From IMG/VR virus record IMGVR_UViG_2728369183_000008: a stretch of DNA of 8,332 nt; one strand, given 5' to 3'. Numbering within the stretch: position 1 is the first letter of the stretch; each line of letters opens with the position of its first letter. The stretch comes from a virus (Duplodnaviria > Heunggongvirae > Uroviricota > Caudoviricetes). Positions 1-8,332 of the stretch are shown piece after piece. The translations under genes and the position numbers were made by a program. The notes below the pieces were generated by a model, which saw only the letters and a program-made list of their open reading frames with translations, did not search any database and was not told the DNA's origin.

Positions 1-279
1 TTACCTCCAGATGCGTTGCTGGAATGTGCGGGACAGACGCGGTGGGCGTTCGGAGTAAGGAAGCCTGACGGAGATTATCCAGTGACGGTAGTCGAGGCTA
101 AGGGCTTTTTTAACCTCGCATCCGCGCCTGCGGTAACACTGAATGAGCCATTCGGCCTGTTCTTCAGTGCATGGGGGATGCTGGTACCAGTCTGACTTAA
201 ATGCGTGAGAATACCGCTCGTGCGTGTGGGCAAGAACGGTCGAATTATCATGTTTGTAATATTTTGCGTTGCGTGCCAT
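1..279 (-). CDS. Hypothetical prophage protein, N-terminal 92 codons only; C-terminus lies beyond the window start
   Basis: ATG at 279..277 on the - strand, preceded by GGAG with a 7-nt spacer; open to the window edge. By position (downstream of the hok and Rem-like genes) it may correspond to the YdfU-like gene of Qin-type prophages, but I do not recognise the sequence. Confidence 0.5.
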   Translation of the reverse strand: MARNAKYYKHDNSTVLAHTHERYSHAFKSDWYQHPPCTEEQAEWLIQCYRRRGCEVKKALSLDYRHWIISVRLPYSERPPRLSRTFQQRIWR

Positions 280-345
280 CGGTTTTCTCCGGTGGCACGG
301 TGTTACTCAGCGGGAGTTCAGCCCCGCGCAAGATTGTAGATGAGT

Positions 346-597
346 TTATTCTTCTGAAAAAGCAGAAAAGCCAGCTTTTATTCCGATCTCTTTCAATACC
401 TGTAATGAAGTGACAAACTCACCGTCGCGCAAGATAAATCCGTCCGTCACTCGGGCATCCACAAAATTAATTAACGCAGCCCCATTTTTTTGCAAACACA
501 CAATGCGGTAATGACTAACAATATTTCCATTTTCAACGCACACAGCATAGAGGCCATCTTCACAAAAAATTTTACGCAGTTCTTCGATGTTCATCAT
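346..597 (-). CDS. Small prophage protein, 83 aa, possible Rem homolog
   Basis: Tandem ATG start at 597..592 with GGAAGG 6 nt upstream; stop at 346. Lies directly downstream of the hokD-like gene on the same strand, as rem does in E. coli K-12 Qin (order quuQ-ydfU-rem-hokD from memory). Length matches, sequence identity not verified. Confidence 0.55.
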   Translation of the reverse strand: MMNIEELRKIFCEDGLYAVCVENGNIVSHYRIVCLQKNGAALINFVDARVTDGFILRDGEFVTSLQVLKEIGIKAGFSAFSEE

Positions 598-728
598 CAG
601 AATCCTTCCGGATAATTAGCTCTCCCCTTTAAGGGACCATCCCTCTTATCCCTGCGCGCTACTTAAGTATTTTTGATTCTATTCCGGCACCGTCCAGAAC
701 TTCAAATGCGTTGAAAATAAAAACAAAA

Positions 729-744
729 ACCCGCCGAAGCGGGT
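729..744 (-). terminator. Rho-independent terminator at the 3' end of the hok mRNA
   Basis: + strand ACCCGC-CGAA-GCGGGT hairpin at 729..744, preceded on + by an A-rich run (709..729), which is a U-tract after the hairpin on the - strand transcript. Confidence 0.55.
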
Positions 745-813
745 TAAGTGCGGGTGCGTTGAGAATGCCTGCCACATCAGAGGTGGCGAGGGATTTCTCC
801 CTCGCCGGGTCTC

Positions 814-969
814 TTACTCCTCAGGTTCGTAAGCTGTGAAGACAGCGACCTCCGTCTGGCCGGTTCGGATTCGTACCTCGCAGAGGTCTTTCCTCGTTAC
901 CAGTGCCGTCACTATGACGGTTAAACAGATGACGATCAGGGCGATTAACATCGCCTTTTGCTGCTTCAT
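814..969 (-). CDS. hokD: Hok-family type I toxin, 51 aa, HokD/RelF-like
   Basis: Translation from the sequence: MKQQKAMLIALIVICLTVIVTALVTRKDLCEVRIRTGQTEVAVFTAYEPEE. Single TM helix followed by the conserved Hok C-terminal region (RKDLCE...EVAVF..AYE). AAGGAG sits 9 nt upstream of the ATG. Matches HokD as I recall it. Confidence 0.9.
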   Translation of the reverse strand: MKQQKAMLIALIVICLTVIVTALVTRKDLCEVRIRTGQTEVAVFTAYEPEE

Positions 970-1025
970 AGCCTGCTTCTCCTTGACCTTTCGGTCCGTA
1001 AGAGGCTAATCTCTATGTGTCGCAT
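966..1025 (-). CDS. mok-like leader ORF, 19 codons, stop overlapping the hok start (ATGA)
   Basis: ATG at 1025..1023 with GAGG 8 nt upstream; reads MRHIEISLLRTERSRRSRL and ends with TGA overlapping the hok ATG. Position matches mok of hok/sok loci. Short, so uncertain. Confidence 0.35.
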   Translation of the reverse strand: MRHIEISLLRTERSRRSRL

Positions 1026-1085
1026 AGATATGGCCTCAGATTAATGTTAAGCGTCTTGCAGGACGCGTAATGTTAACTGGGGCTT
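1019..1085 (+). ncRNA. Predicted Sok-like antisense RNA; ends approximate
   Basis: + strand -35 TTGACC (983..988) and -10 TAATCT (1007..1012), 18-nt spacer, lying opposite the hok ribosome-binding region. A transcript from here would be antisense to the hok mRNA leader and mok start, as Sok is in characterised hok/sok loci. No clear terminator found, so the 3' end is a guess. Confidence 0.25.
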
Positions 1086-1144
1086 TTCTCTATCTGCCTT
1101 TTGGTGTTCATGCCTGAGACAGATAGCCTCAAGCACCCGCAGTT

Positions 1145-1172
1145 ATTCTACTTAACTAAGATTTCCCCGCAA
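1145..1172 (-). promoter_or_regulatory. Candidate hok mRNA promoter
   Basis: On the - strand: -35 TTGCGG (+ coords 1167..1172), 16-nt spacer, -10 TAGAAT (1145..1150), a few nt upstream of the conserved hok mRNA 5' element GCGGGTGCTTGAGGC (~1140..1126). Confidence 0.4.
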
Positions 1173-1227
1173 ACCGTTTTTGTCCGGCACAGTAAATATC
1201 CAACTAAACCAATGGCGTTCGCTGTAT

Positions 1228-1407
1228 TTACCGCCAGTATTCAATGCACATGACCGCCATGAACACCCCTAAAAAAAGGGCATTTATATGTCCAAACATT
1301 AATATCAAAACATCAATTTTTTCCATATACCTTGCTGTGAAGATGATGGGCATACATGATGCGAACAACCAGAACGCAACAAACAAAAACTGCAATGCGT
1401 TTTTCAT
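1228..1407 (-). CDS. Small hydrophobic protein, about 59 aa from the internal ATG; function unknown
   Basis: ATG at 1407..1405 preceded by GGGGG 4 nt upstream; reads MKNALQFLFVAFWLFASCMPIIFTARYMEKIDVLILMFGHINALFLGVFMAVMCIEYWR, consistent with two TM helices. The longer track ORF (to 1446) starts at GTG. AT-rich region, so a chance ORF is possible. Confidence 0.3.
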   Translation of the reverse strand: MKNALQFLFVAFWLFASCMPIIFTARYMEKIDVLILMFGHINALFLGVFMAVMCIEYWR

Positions 1408-1527
1408 TATTCCCCCTACAATCAATGTGCAATAACATTTAAACACACCTCAATTTGGCCGGACATATAAATATCTAAACCAGAAAAAATCACTTACATA
1501 GCGTTACAAACTCTTTAGTCTAAATAT

Positions 1528-2043
1528 TCATCGTAAAACATCCTCCACGCTTATCAGTCCATTTCGTTTCAGGTAATCTATCGCCTTCTCCGGTAATTTG
1601 CAGTCCGGCTGAGCTTTTTTCAGTTGACTGACCAGTCGTTTAACCCACATTGTTAATTCGCTAACCTGATTGCCGGATGCTGGTGGATTGTCGGCTTTAC
1701 CCAGAATGGCAGCGCAGCAGGCCTCTCTGAGCACCCAGTCAACAGCATCCTTCCATGCTCCTGTTTCGACTGGCGGATTCTCACGCTTTACCTGTTCATA
1801 AAAGCGCACGGCTTTAACCAGTCCTTCTGATGTCACCGGGACTGGCGGGCCGATGAATAAGGCCTGAATTTCATAGTTCGGCCTGTCGTTACAATCCTCT
1901 TTTGTCGGTACATATTTCCAGTCACCAGCCCACGGCTTCCCCTGAAAGTCTGTAACGTCTTTTTTCACGTAGCGATATCGCCATGCAACTGGTTTTGCCT
2001 GCCCTGCCGTTTCATGCCCTTCCTGATAATTAATCTCGCTCAT
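1528..2043 (-). CDS. Hypothetical prophage protein, 171 aa
   Basis: ATG at 2043..2041 overlaps the stop of the upstream ORF (ATGA), indicating translational coupling. Long ORF with normal composition. No family recognised. Confidence 0.7.
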   Translation of the reverse strand: MSEINYQEGHETAGQAKPVAWRYRYVKKDVTDFQGKPWAGDWKYVPTKEDCNDRPNYEIQALFIGPPVPVTSEGLVKAVRFYEQVKRENPPVETGAWKDAVDWVLREACCAAILGKADNPPASGNQVSELTMWVKRLVSQLKKAQPDCKLPEKAIDYLKRNGLISVEDVLR

Positions 2044-2197
2044 TCATCGCCCCACTCATCACAATATGCTTCGACCGGAGTTTTTCCTGCTTCATAATCA
2101 TCACGCCATGCTTCAGCATCAGCAGCACTGCCACCACGTAACTCTGCATAGTCCATTAACAGTTCATGCCATGCTTCAAAACTGACGTTGTATTTAG
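2040..2197 (-). pseudogene. 3' fragment of a prophage gene truncated by IS5 (ends ...AEAWRDDYEAGKTPVEAYCDEWGDE)
   Basis: The reading frame is open from the IS5 left boundary (2197) to the stop at 2042..2040. It does not continue on the other side of IS5: the sequence right of the element shows an in-frame TAA and no start codon in that frame. Confidence 0.5.
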
Positions 2198-3392
<1,195 letters not shown>

Positions 3393-3578
3393 TCAGGTAA
3401 GGGACGAACAAAAAATCCTCGGTGAATGCCTCCCGTTAAAAAAAGTATCGCTGAACCTGAATAACGAAATACCGGCTGGATAACCCGCCAGCCATATTAA
3501 CGCCATACCAACGGATTAAAAATGCCAGCAATGGCAGGGATTCGTTCACCCTGAAATCTGTAATGAGGTTAAAACACA

Positions 3579-6013
3579 ATGAGTAAAATCTTTATTTGCG
3601 CTGCTATTCCTGACGAACAGGCCATAAAAGAAGATAGCGCTGTTGCGGTGGCCACTGCCATTGAAGCCGGTGATGAACGTCGCGCCCGCGCAAAATTTCA
3701 CTGGCAATTCCTGGAACATTATCCGGCTGCTCAGGACTGCGCTTATAAATTTCTTGTTTGCGAGGATAAACCCGGCATACCCCGCCCTGCCCTCGATTCC
3801 TGGGATGCTGAATATATGCAGGAAAACCGCTGGGATGAGGAATCCGCTTCCTTTATTCCGGTCGAACCAGAATCCGATCCGATGAACGTCAATTTTGACA
3901 AGCTGTCCCTTGAAGTACAGAACGCGGTCCTGGTTAAGTTCGGTACATGTGAAAACATCACCGTTGATATGGCGATTGACGCGCAGGAATTACTGCAGGA
4001 AGACGTTGCTACCTTTGACGGGCATATCGTTGAAGCACTGATGAAAACGCCTGAAATTAACGCTATGTATCCGGAACGCAAACTGTTCGCTATCGGATGG
4101 GTTAAACACAAATGTAATCCGGGTGCCAAATGGCCAGAAATTCAGGCTGAATTACGTAACTGGAAAAAACGGCAGGACGCAGAGCGCAAAGAGACTGGAA
4201 AATACACGTCTGTTGTTGATCTCGCCCGCGCCAGAGTCAATCAACAGCACACTGAAAACTCAGCAGGAAAAATCAACCCAGTCACTGCCGCCATTTGTCG
4301 CGAATACAAGCAGACATGGAAAACGCTGGATGAAGAACTGGCCTACGCTCTCTGGCCTGGCGATATTGATACCGGAAACATTGACGGCAGCATCCATCGC
4401 CGGGCAAAAAATGAAGTTATCGACAAAGATCGCGAAGACTGGAAGCGCATTTCCGCATCAATGCGCAAACAACCCGATGCCGTTCGCTACGACCGTCAGA
4501 CTATTTTTGGCCTTGTCCGTGAGCGTCCGATCGACATTCACAAAGATCCCGTAGCACTGAACAAATACATCACTGAATACCTGACTACCAAGGGCGTGTT
4601 TGAAGATGACGAAGGAACAAATCAGGGCACAGCTGGTACTCTCCCGTCACCAGTACCAGAAACTGATGCAGTGGAAACGGCAATGCCGGACAACGAAAAA
4701 ACCGAATGCGAAGTGGAAGACGAACCATCTGTAGAGCGTGAGGGACCGTTCTACTTCCTTTTCACCGATAAGGACGGCGAAAAATACGGTCGCGCAAACA
4801 AACTTTCTGGTCTGGAAAAAGCACTGGCCCTGGGAGCTACGGAAATCACAAAAGAGGAATACTTCGCACGTAAAAACGGCACGTACTCAGGTTCACAACA
4901 AAATACTGGTGCATCTGACACGATCGCACAACCAGAGCCGGTAAAAGTTACCGCTGACGAAGTAAACAAAATTATGCAGGCAGCCAATATCAGCCAGCCT
5001 GACGCCAATAAGTTGCTTGCTGTATCACGTGGTGAATTTGTTGCAGGGATTAGCGACCCGAATGATCCGAAATGGGTGAAGGGGATTGAAACCCGCGATT
5101 CAGTGAATCAGAACCAGCAAGAAACGGAACAGAACGGCCAGAAAGCGGAACAAAACAGCCCAAATGCGTTACAAAACGAGCCAGAAACGAAACATCCTGA
5201 ACCAGTGGCGCAACAGGAAGTGGAAAAAGTCTGCACCGCCTGCGGTCAGACCGGCGGCGGCAACTACCCTGATTGTGGCGCGGTGATGGGCGACGCAACA
5301 TACCAGGAAACATTCGATGAAGAGTATCAGGTTGAAGTTCAGGAAGATGATCCGGAGGAAATGGAAGGCGCTGAACATCCACACAAGGAGAACACTGGCG
5401 GCAATCAGCATCACGATAGCGATAATGAAACTGGCGAGACGGCAGATCACTCAATTAAGGTGAACGGTCATCAAGAAATCACATCCACCAGCAGGACGTG
5501 TGACCATCTAATGATCGACCTTGAAACCATGGGAAAAAATCCTGATGCCCCGATCATCTCAATAGGTGCAATATTTTTCGATCCGCAAACCGGAGATATG
5601 GGACCGGAATTTAGTAAGACTATCGATCTGGAAACTGCTGGCGGGGTCATTGATCGGGACACCATTAAATGGTGGCTTAAGCAATCACGCGAAGCGCAAT
5701 CTGCCATTATGACCGATGAAATCCCGTTAGATGATGCACTGTTACAATTGCGGGAATTTATCGACGAAAACTCCGGTGAATTTTTTGTTCAGGTCTGGGG
5801 AAATGGAGCCAACTTCGACAACACGATTTTGCGCCGTTCATACGAACGGCANNNNNNNNNNNNNNNNNNNNNNNNNNNNNNNNNNNNNNNNNNNNNNNNN
5901 NNNNNNNNNNNNNNNNNNNNNNNNNNNNNNNNNNNNNNNNNNNNNNTCGTTACCAGGCAAAATACGTTTCAGCTATCTGGCAAAAACTGATCCCGAGTCA
6001 GGCTGATTTTTAA
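3579..6013 (+). CDS. Prophage RecE-like exonuclease (often annotated exodeoxyribonuclease VIII) with a C-terminal DEDD-type 3'-5' exonuclease domain; interrupted by an assembly gap
   Basis: ATG at 3579 with GAGG upstream. Internal segment KLLAVSRGEFVAGISDPNDPKWVKGIETRD resembles a RecE segment I recall. C-terminal region has Exo I (MIDLETMG) and Exo II (GNGANFDNTIL) motifs. With the gap taken as 95 nt the in-frame stop is at 5990; if the gap length is a multiple of 3 the stop is at 6011..6013 (tail RYQAKYVSAIWQKLIPSQADF). The end coordinate is therefore uncertain. Confidence 0.75.
5852..5946. other. Assembly gap (95 N)
   Basis: Run of n characters; real length and content unknown. Confidence 1.
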
Positions 6014-6028
6014 TGTTCAACCCTAATT

Positions 6029-6054
6029 GCCGCTAACCGTATATAGTTAGCGGC
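6029..6054 (+). promoter_or_regulatory. Perfect 9-bp stem-loop between the exonuclease and xis genes
   Basis: GCCGCTAAC (6029..6037), 8-nt loop, GTTAGCGGC (6046..6054). No following T-tract, so not a classical intrinsic terminator; could be an RNA structure or a protein-binding palindrome. Confidence 0.3.
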
Positions 6055-6071
6055 GGTTATGAGATATAGCT

Positions 6072-6275
6072 ATGAGCAGCTTATTTTTAACCGAAGATGA
6101 ATTGCTAATATTAACGGGCTGCAAATATGCAAGCCACCAGCGAAAATGGTTAATGGAAAACGGGCTTCCGTTCTATACCAATCGTAGTGGCAAACCGATT
6201 GTCAGCCGGGATCTATTTACCTGCAATAAAACTTTACCACCACGCGAGGTAGAGCCGAATTTTGGTGCGATCTGA
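6072..6275 (+). CDS. Excisionase-like protein, DUF4224-type (67 aa)
   Basis: Small ORF immediately upstream of the integrase, with its stop overlapping the int start (ATGA at 6272..6275). N-terminal MSSLFLTEDELLILTGCKYASHQRKWLMENGLPFYTNRSGKPIVSRDLF resembles the DUF4224 family commonly paired with integrases. Not lambda-Xis-like. Confidence 0.65.
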   Translation: MSSLFLTEDELLILTGCKYASHQRKWLMENGLPFYTNRSGKPIVSRDLFTCNKTLPPREVEPNFGAI

Positions 6276-7299
6276 TGGGAAGACGAAGGAAAAATCCTGA
6301 ACACGAAAAATTACCTCCAAATGTATACCCAAATAAATATAGTTATGTATGGAAACCAACATCCAGAGAATCTGTCACACTAACCGCCATCAAGGATGGT
6401 TTAGCTGCTTTATGGAAAAAGTATGAGGAAACTGTAAATAATCGCGATCGTGCAATGACATTCGGTCGCTTGTGGGAAAAATTCCTCGCCAGCGCCTGTT
6501 ACAGTGACCTTAGTCCAAGAACACAAAAAGATTATCTGCAACATCAAAAAAAGTTGCTTGCCGTATTCGGTAAGGTACCAGCGGATTCCATAAAACCAGA
6601 ACACATCCGTCGATACATGGACAAAAGAGGGGAGCAGAGTAAAACGCAAGCCAACCATGAAAAAGCAGTATGTCCCGTGTTTACAGTTGGGGGTATGAGC
6701 GAGGGTACGTCAAGGCTAACCCATGTGCAGGTGTAAGTAAATTCAAGGCCAAAAACCGCGAACGATATGTAACCGACAAAGAATACCAGGCAGTATTAAG
6801 CGTTGCACCTCTTCCTGTTTTTATCGCAATGGAAATTGCCTATCTGTGTGCAGCGAGGGTTTCCGATGTGTTATCGCTGAAATGGGAACAGATTGGAAAC
6901 GACGGGATATTCATCCAGCAAGGGAAAACCGGAAAAAAACAGATAAAAGCATGGAGTCCACGATTACAGGCAGCGATCGAAAAAGCAAAACAGTTACCAA
7001 AATCTGCCTATGTGATCAGCAATCAATACGGCAACCGATATATGTACAAAGGCTTTAACGAAATGTGGGTAGAAGCAAGAAATCGTGCTGGAAAAATTTC
7101 AGGTATTTTAACCGACTTCACCTTTCATGATCTGAAGGCGAAAGGAATTTCAGACTATGAAGGAAGCAGCCGGGATAAGCAACTTTTCTCTGGTCACAAA
7201 ACCGAAGGGCAAGTGCTAATCTATGACAGGAAGGTTAAAGTTTCACCAACACTTGATGTCCCGTTACCTGAAAATATTCCAAGAAAATATTCCAAGTAA
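6275..7299 (+). pseudogene. Lambda-family tyrosine integrase, disrupted by a frameshift
   Basis: N-terminus MGRRRKNPEHEKLPPNVY resembles lambda Int (MGRRRSHERRDLPPNLY). C-terminal part has candidate catalytic residues R (AARVSD), K (QGKTG), H (TFHDL), H (GHKTEG), Y (LIYDRK). The reading frame changes between 6661 and 6733, most plausibly at the A5 run 6660..6664; the two track ORFs are 6275..6736 and 6670..7299. The HxxR box reads HDLK (AAG at the Arg position). Confidence 0.85.
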
Positions 7300-7306
7300 T
7301 TCCAAG
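7276..7306 (+). repeat. Three direct repeats of ATTCCAAG at the int 3' end, adjacent to the tRNA; candidate integrase arm-type sites
   Basis: ATTCCAAG at 7276..7283, 7289..7296 and 7299..7306, within about 50 bp of the tRNA 3' end, where P'-arm sites lie in lambda-type attL. Confidence 0.35.
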
Positions 7307-7351
7307 TGTGATTTTTGTCACTGACTTAATGATGTGTAAGTGATTGAATTT

Positions 7352-7441
7352 TGGCGGAGAGAGGGGGATTTGAACCCCCGGTGGAGTTGCCCCCACTCCG
7401 GTTTTCGAGACCGGTCCGTTCAGCCGCTCCGGCATCTCTCC
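7352..7441 (-). tRNA. serU: tRNA-Ser (anticodon CGA), type II with long variable arm
   Basis: Reverse complement reads GGAGAGATGCCGGAGCGG...CCGGTCTCGAAAACCGG...GGGGGTTCAAATCCCCCTCTCTCCGCCA. Anticodon loop CU-CGA-AA, T-arm GGGGG/CCCCC, 3' CCA encoded. 90 nt. Confidence 0.95.
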
Positions 7442-7534
7442 GTTCAGATGGTTGCCATGATGCCAGGAAATTTGGCATTTTAACAGTCCCTGTCCGTGCA
7501 ATTTTGTTCAAGTGACGAGTTTGCGAGCAAAACG

Positions 7535-8332
7535 ATGATTAAGTGGCCCTGGAAAGTACAAGAATCAGCACATCAAACTGCCCTTCCCTGGCAGGAAGCA
7601 CTATCGATCCCCCTTTTAACGTGTCTGACAGAACAGGAACAAAGCAAATTGGTCGCTCTTGCCGAACGTTTTTTACAGCAAAAACGGCTTGTTCCTTTAC
7701 AGGGCTTTGAGCTGAATTCATTAAGAAGCTGCCGGATAGCACTTCTATTTTGCCTGCCCGTTCTGGAGTTAGGACTGGAATGGCTGGATGGTTTTCATGA
7801 AGTCTTAATTTATCCTGCGCCATTTGTGGTCGATGATGAATGGGAAGACGATATCGGTCTGGTGCATAACCAACGTATTGTTCAGTCAGGTCAGAGCTGG
7901 CAGCAAGGGCCTATCGTTTTGAACTGGTTGGATATACAAGATTCTTTTGATGCTTCTGGTTTTAACCTGATTATTCATGAAGTCGCTCATAAGCTGGACA
8001 CCCGTAACGGCGATCGCGCCAGCGGAGTTCCCTTTATTTCGTTGCGTGAGGTTGCTGGCTGGGAACACGATCTTCATGCTGCAATGAACAACATTCAGGA
8101 AGAAATCGAATTAGTTGGTGAGAATGCGGCGAGCATTGATGCTTATGCTGCCAGTGATCCTGCTGAATGTTTTGCCGTACTTTCTGAATATTTCTTTAGC
8201 GCCCCAGAACTTTTTGCTCCTCGTTTCCCTTCATTGTGGCAACGTTTCTGTCAATTTTATCAACAAGATCCTTTGCAGAGACTGCATCACGCTAATGATA
8301 CAAACTCGTTTTCGGCGACGAATGTTCATTAA
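7535..8332 (+). CDS. mtfA: MtfA (Mlc titration factor A, zinc-dependent peptidase), 265 aa
   Basis: Translation [28 protein letters not shown]... with the HEVAH zinc-binding motif; recognised as E. coli MtfA (YeeI). Start chosen at ATG 7535, not the upstream in-frame ATG at 7496, to give the canonical N-terminus. Confidence 0.9.

Follow-up and report, generated by a model that had tools for sequence, protein, structure and literature searches.

An IS5 element in place of the immunity and replication region of a lambdoid prophage at serU of Escherichia coli

That lambdoid prophages are crippled by insertion sequence (IS) insertions, deletions and frameshifts is textbook knowledge. In Escherichia coli, the K-12 prophages Qin, Rac and DLP12 and the pool of defective prophages in O157 Sakai (PMC2669165) are lambdoids that have decayed in these ways but still have hokD, rem, ydfU, Q and lysis genes. 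IS5, too, is present in prophages of K-12, one example being the copy at nmpC in DLP12 (PMC11677980). Here we describe a defective lambdoid prophage that is contained in part in an 8,332-nucleotide (nt) stretch of the viral record IMGVR_UViG_2728369183_000008 (the window, by which we mean this whole stretch), and in which a single IS5 copy stands in the place of a 7.9-kb region retained by a sister prophage. Qin shares with this prophage type the order hokD-rem-ydfU-Q and the dicB/DicF region. Qin keeps dicA and dicC, but its replication and structural genes are missing; the prophage described here lacks the immunity and replication genes, whereas the late genes are largely kept in the closest genomes. 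The integration site is serU, unlike those of the K-12 cryptic prophages compared.

IS-mediated adjacent deletions are classical, IS1 and IS903 being the classic cases: an end of the IS attacks a target close by on the molecule that carries it, and the DNA in between is lost. For IS5, a report of an adjacent deletion at rfa is cited in a passage of PMC12844343. IS5 has been reported to transpose mainly by copy/paste (PMC11677980), and since copy/paste with an intramolecular target gives adjacent deletions, such a mechanism is plausible for this element. The locus described here resembles the classical cases in that the IS has remained where it was, the deletion begins exactly at one of its ends, a target duplication is absent and the junctions of related isolates form a nested series with one fixed and one variable joint. 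It differs from them in that the deletions were found in natural isolates and not in a selection experiment, that only two of the four variable joints lie at consensus targets, and that the mechanism is a proposed one.

The lost block and its undeleted sister

The ORF (open reading frame) listing and the tRNA, Pfam, PHROGs and Rfam searches agreed on the layout of the window (Table 1), which consists of two gene blocks of converging origin, one on the minus and one on the plus strand, with only IS5 and short flanks between them. An original prediction for this stretch had placed the features of both blocks where our searches found them, and had proposed that the immunity, antitermination and replication module is missing in between. 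Indeed, the blocks are separated only by IS5 and the 186 bp from its end to the ATG of the exonuclease gene (3393-3578), and neither the ORF listing nor Pfam gave a repressor-like or replication-like ORF in the window.

A whole-window megablast against 5,426 complete E. coli genomes revealed many serU prophages that match the window from position 3393 or 3522 rightwards. As reference we used the best IS5-free sister, a prophage at the same serU site of E. coli LC-1302-2020 (NZ_CP091756.1; this locus is called L002 below). Window positions 1-2197 equal L002 9904-12100 with 100% identity and zero mismatches, and positions 3393-5851 equal L002 20001-22459 with 99.96% identity (99.9% overall for 3393-8332). 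The 7,900 bp of L002 12101-20000 stand exactly where the window has IS5. Together with the prophage records ON470583 and ON470580, the sister has the same att site, int, xis, exo, hokD and rem as the window, at 99.4-100% identity over the shared DNA, and these three differ from it in keeping the 7.9-kb (or an allelic) immunity/replication region without IS5. The synteny comparison with serU prophages thus bore out the predicted absence of the immunity and replication region with IS5 at the scar, the module being in its canonical place in the sister and in many others.

The content of the lost block was taken from the RefSeq annotation of L002 and checked by our own Pfam scan, which was independent of the RefSeq names. 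On the nin side the block holds the rest of a 58-amino-acid (aa) ORF, followed by genes for DUF7167, a hypothetical protein, Ea22-like, DUF4406, DUF977 and DUF1627 proteins. The replication genes encode a lambda-P-like protein (Phage_lambda_P, PF06992) and, in the O position, a DnaT-domain protein (PF17948). Regulation is represented by YdaT, the CII equivalent in CP-933P-type phages (PMC9986795), by a Cro of the P22-Cro type (P22_Cro) and by a divergent cI-like helix-turn-helix repressor (HTH_3, PF01381; weak match to Phage_CI_repr, PF07022). Leftward lie DUF1391 (ydfA-like), Rha/Ash (Phage_pRha), DicB and the first 98 nt of the DUF1482 (ydfD-like) gene, and Rfam identified the RNAs DicF, isrK and C4. 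The lost block corresponds exactly to the region of immunity, early promoters and replication together with the dicB operon.

The immunity region of the undeleted sister is of the Qin/CP-933P type (dicA-dicC-ydaT), and the lambda-like order int-xis-exo, immunity, replication, nin, Q, lysis, head, tail is complete in L002 and L010. Judged by its sequence, the window holds the int-proximal end of a lambdoid prophage at serU that derives from a Qin/CP-933P-type phage by deletion. In the leftward operon of the intact sister, the DicF, isrK and C4 antisense RNA genes lie beside the Rha/Ash gene (L002 18613-19092) and form a P1/P7-like antirepressor control cassette.

Our statements on the rest of the prophage come from relatives; the far end of the source element lies outside the window. 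The element of SW070919 extends from zinT to serU over ~40 kb, and both this element and that of MS 196-1 carry tail-fibre, tail, head, terminase, lysis, tRNA, Q, RusA and DUF968 genes, followed by the genes of the window. Across the whole element of these two relatives, repressor, cro and replication genes were found in no order, canonical or otherwise, so that the module has not been relocated there; a relocated module would have spoken against the original prediction. Its claim of lost antitermination did not hold: all relatives have the Q gene ~1.4 kb beyond the left edge of the window, and even the undeleted sister has no annotated N-like gene. Similarly, the ORF at 1-279 is not YdfU; the DUF968/YdfU gene lies just past the left edge of the window in the relatives, with RusA and Q beyond it.

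IS5 junctions and a proposed route to the deletion

IS5 is defined by a length of 1195 bp, 16-bp terminal inverted repeats and a DDE transposase of ~326 aa (PMC11677980), and the element in the window has all of these features. It is full length at exactly 1195 bp, has 16-bp terminal inverted repeats with the ends GGAAGGTGCGAATAAG and CTTGTTCGCACCTTCC, and encodes on the minus strand a 326-aa DDE transposase (Pfam DDE_Tnp_1, 4.5e-35; RefSeq family ISKpn26), whose gene is co-oriented with the rightward operon. The element is flanked by TTAG on the left (2194-2197) and TCAG on the right (3393-3396). Because these flanks differ, with no 4-bp target-site duplication, this IS5 copy is no simple insertion but the mark of a rearrangement. 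In its ISfinder form the IS5 target reads YTAR, which the left flank TTAG matches. The paper we consulted gives instead the consensus C(A/T)A(G/A) for the 4-bp target that is duplicated on insertion (PMC11677980). At the left junction, the 58-aa nin-region gene lacks its first 19 nt including the start codon.

Three of the 5,426 genomes cover more than 90% of the window (NZ_CM129861.1, NZ_CP146681.1 and NZ_AP045810.1), and all three carry a base-identical IS5 with the same left junction. The left joint (...TATTTAG/GGAAGG, the slash marking the joint) is therefore fixed, and it is the right joint, at the transposase-proximal end of IS5, that varies. The junction strings are ...TATTTAG/GGAAGGTG on the left, and CACCTTCC/TCAGGTAAGG and CACCTTCC/TTAGTTGAACC (the form predicted for the ancestor) for the other joints. 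On the right, IS5 of the window joins L002 20001 (TCAG). The joint of SW070919 (NZ_CM129861.1) is at ~L002 20045 (TTAA), 44-46 nt deeper than that of the window; that of MS 196-1 (NZ_CP146681.1) is at L002 20177 (TTAA), 176 bp deeper and 10 nt before the exonuclease start; and that of 23CRST038 (NZ_AP045810.1) is at ~L002 20416 (CTGA), 415 bp deeper, with the first 231 nt of the exonuclease gene deleted. Four sequences thus have one identical left joint and four nested right joints, with homology to L002 resuming at the first base after the IS. The deleted DNA abuts exactly one IS end, and the IS and its other junction are unchanged.

One fixed end combined with nested variable ends points to an IS-mediated adjacent deletion. 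Moreover, TTAA, a form of YTAR, is present at two of the four variable joints, compared with a YTAR background of only ~1% of local positions, and this argues for target choice by the transposase; TCAG and CTGA do not fit. We consider it highly probable that an IS5-associated deletion removed the immunity and replication module, and we favour, with less assurance, the adjacent-deletion route specifically. IS5 would have inserted at TTAG in the nin region, inside the 58-aa gene upstream of the 171-aa ORF, and before the deletion PR transcription could have entered its transposase gene. The transposase-proximal end would then have joined a site 7.9 kb away in the DUF1482 gene, most likely by intramolecular (replicative) transposition, and all DNA between both sites would have been lost as an adjacent deletion.

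Several observations weigh against this account. The right joint of the window itself, TCAG, is off the IS5 target consensus, as is CTGA in 23CRST038, and the exact right joint of the window occurs in no other sequence among the 5,426 complete E. coli genomes, metagenome contigs and GTDB representative genomes. A simple-insertion ancestor (TTAG/IS5/TTAG) was not found either: a left-junction query of the 5,426 genomes gave only the three deleted genomes, and an exact-pattern scan of metagenome contigs gave nothing, which is why we infer the order of events. For a deletion of ~8 kb, the four right joints are confined to a stretch of only 416 bp, and this clustering is better explained by one large deletion followed by small ones (or by endpoint selection) than by four independent large deletions. 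Finally, single-nucleotide polymorphisms leave the genealogy unsettled, as a comparison of the four IS5-bearing loci with the IS5-free sister yielded no informative sites; the left flank is invariant across the IS5-bearing loci, and the sole cluster of differences is a patch in 23CRST038 (described below).

A single IS5 with the mismatched flanks TTAG and TCAG is likewise predicted by RecA-dependent homologous recombination between two direct IS5 copies, one at L002 12100 and the other near L002 20000, with no one-ended deletion. IS5 is multi-copy in E. coli, and there are repeated insertions in this prophage region. However, four separate second insertions inside the same 416 bp, or else later one-ended deletions, would have to be assumed, and TCAG and CTGA make poor targets for IS5. 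A genome with IS5 copies on both sides was not found in our searches, and we regard such an origin of the first event as unlikely. Far less probable still is an assembly artefact, in which a short-read assembler would have merged into one the IS5 copies at either end of an intact 7.9-kb segment. As a repeat, IS5 is classically prone to such collapse, the right junction of the window is unique among everything searched, and a private homopolymer indel hints at imperfect sequence quality, but three independent complete genomes from different places share the left junction and the loss of the module, so that the structure is real in this lineage. The notion that this prophage type never had an immunity/replication module between exo and nin, and simply has a non-canonical architecture, was rejected and has virtually no chance of being correct: the module is present in canonical place in the 99.9-100% identical sister L002 and in many serU prophages, and truncated genes abut both ends of IS5.

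In our view, one large deletion came first and small further ones later, the window representing the least-deleted state; endpoint selection is the alternative. We tentatively, and with some doubt, extend this to the suggestion that the series captures IS5 in the course of eroding a prophage in nature by repeated one-ended intramolecular transposition, and that the first 7.9-kb step was selected, as it removed the repressor together with the functions it held in check (replication, DicB and YdfD). If true, this would provide evidence from natural populations for replicative IS5 transposition, and would suggest that an IS co-directional with the early rightward operon in which it lies predisposes a prophage to domesticating deletions.

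IS5 copies in the same orientation were also observed at different sites of the same nin/replication region in two other loci, each with a deletion and mismatched flanks. In TUM13770 (IS5 at L005 12408-13602) the arrangement is TTAA/IS5/CTAG and 432 bp are lost, and in CP53 (IS5 at L006 ~12400-13600) the DNA from DUF7167 to mid-ydaT is lost and the replication genes are gone. The nin/replication region looks like a recurrent IS5 target.

Other features of the window and its relatives

Table 1. Features of the window, with the matches or correspondences on which each assignment is based
Feature	Position	Strand	Evidence or remark
92-aa phage ORF, function unassigned	1-279	-	phrog_1212; RefSeq WP_001405664.1
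rem, 83 aa	346-597	-	phrog_340
hokD-type Hok toxin gene, 51 aa	814-969	-	PF01848, 1.2e-23
hok leader / sok antitoxin RNA region	967-1138	-	Rfam RF01794, 106.7 bits, E 4e-24
171-aa nin-region ORF, function unassigned	1528-2043	-	phrog_660; WP_001289993.1
58-aa nin-region gene, 5'-truncated remnant	2040-2197	-	gene at L002 11943-12119
IS5 (ISKpn26-like)	2198-3392	-	1195 bp; transposase 2344-3324
DUF1482 (ydfD-like) gene, last 91 nt	3393-3483	+	= L002 20001-20091; first 98 nt deleted
Phage exonuclease, 824 aa	3579-6013	+	Pfam Rv2179c-like 5.5e-41; phrog_2082
DUF4224 excisionase, 67 aa	6072-6275	+	phrog_1266
Tyrosine integrase, two ORFs	6275-7299	+	PF00589, PF14659
tRNA-Ser(CGA) (serU)	7352-7441	-	tRNA search
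Host mtfA	7535-8332		beyond tRNA-Ser(CGA)

The right end of the prophage is that of a tRNA-integrated lambdoid element. The integrase and excisionase genes adjoin tRNA-Ser(CGA), and a 31-bp att core at 7352-7382, within the tRNA gene, is repeated at the far end beside zinT in two relatives. In the minus-strand block, a Hok-family ORF is accompanied by an upstream leader/Sok antisense RNA region, the arrangement of a hok/sok type I toxin-antitoxin locus; the RF01794 match of 106.7 bits compares with a gathering score of 59. Between this locus and the 171-aa gene lies an unannotated hydrophobic ORF of 72 aa (1228-1446, minus strand) with a low GC content (~40%), for which no Pfam or PHROG match was obtained. 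On the plus strand, a chimeric ORF of 120 aa (3121-3483) begins within IS5, shares its stop codon with the truncated DUF1482 gene and probably has no meaning.

The only Pfam domain of the exonuclease is a C-terminal Rv2179c-like (DnaQ-like) 3'-5' exonuclease domain, and the C-terminus was checked against a relative. An identity with RecE or lambda Exo is not supported by this domain content, although some GenBank records name the protein exodeoxyribonuclease VIII. Within the gene, 135 bases of the relatives are represented by only 95 N (5852-5946), so that the frame seems to shift across this run, which is a masking artefact and not biology. In 23CRST038 only, 39 clustered substitutions relative to window positions 5007-5477 interrupt otherwise identical DNA of this gene, and they represent a recombination patch in the middle of the exonuclease, where the protein is acidic and of low complexity.

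The integrase gene of the window has a run of five A at 6660-6664, where seven of seven relatives examined have six. This difference is private to the window and divides the gene, ahead of the region for the catalytic domain, into two ORFs (6275-6736 and 6670-7299); either slippage has truly mutated the gene or the homopolymer was misread in sequencing. The 3' end of int contains a tandem repeat of 13 bp, AAAATATTCCAAG ×2, at positions 7271-7296. The Prokaryotic Genome Annotation Pipeline (PGAP) calls the integrase 'frameshifted' in every serU relative examined, while their 341-aa ORF is uninterrupted and the PGAP feature ends 25 nt beyond the stop codon. The label is apparently due to the 3' region with the 13-bp tandem repeat in the last codons.

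Some of the relatives have peculiarities of their own. In MS 196-1, ISEc23 lies inside the tail-fibre assembly gene, and the far end of the prophage (L007 14132-19018; NZ_CP146681.1) abuts a truncated ompW followed by yciE-yciF-yciG-trpA, with no zinT. This far end implies a large chromosomal rearrangement via prophage or tail-fibre homology, by which the cognate attL would be lost. The GenBank 'phage' records ON470583.1 and ON470580.1 include host mtfA, tRNA-Asn and the yersiniabactin island and are prophage-region predictions, not virion genomes. Their product labels are unreliable, examples being 'exodeoxyribonuclease VIII' and the name 'head-DNA stabilization protein D' for ydfA.

Predicted consequences for the prophage

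The prophage had been predicted to be a defective remnant that keeps recombination genes and a toxin locus. By gene content it is defective: the repressor, cro, O-like and P-like genes are absent, and int is frameshifted in the window. It is not a small remnant, as the relatives keep ~40 kb with full late genes. Likewise, the toxin locus is present as hok/sok, but the retention of recombination genes was overstated, as the exonuclease has a DnaQ-like 3'-5' domain and no annealing-protein partner and the integrase is frameshifted. Besides hok/sok, the Q-lysis-head-tail genes remain in the relatives.

Having lost the repressor, the early promoters, the origin with its initiator and the helicase loader, the element would be neither inducible nor able to replicate. 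The exo-xis-int genes and the genes from hok and rem through Q to the late region would also be left without their natural promoters; a scan for consensus promoters and terminators around the junctions gave nothing above shuffled expectation and no convincing replacement promoters. The deletion may have been tolerable because the repressor and the killing functions that it silences (dicB, ydfD and replication) went together.

Taken together, this is ordinary, well-understood prophage decay by a process that is already known, and current understanding of prophage domestication is unchanged. For annotation, the prophage at serU is best entered as non-inducible and non-replicating despite the near-complete late genes in the closest genomes; programs that predict prophages by counting structural genes would wrongly call it intact. 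The series of nested junctions is the only mildly noteworthy aspect. It provides a natural example of IS-driven prophage decay and lends modest support to the view that IS5 transposition is replicative and prone to adjacent deletions.

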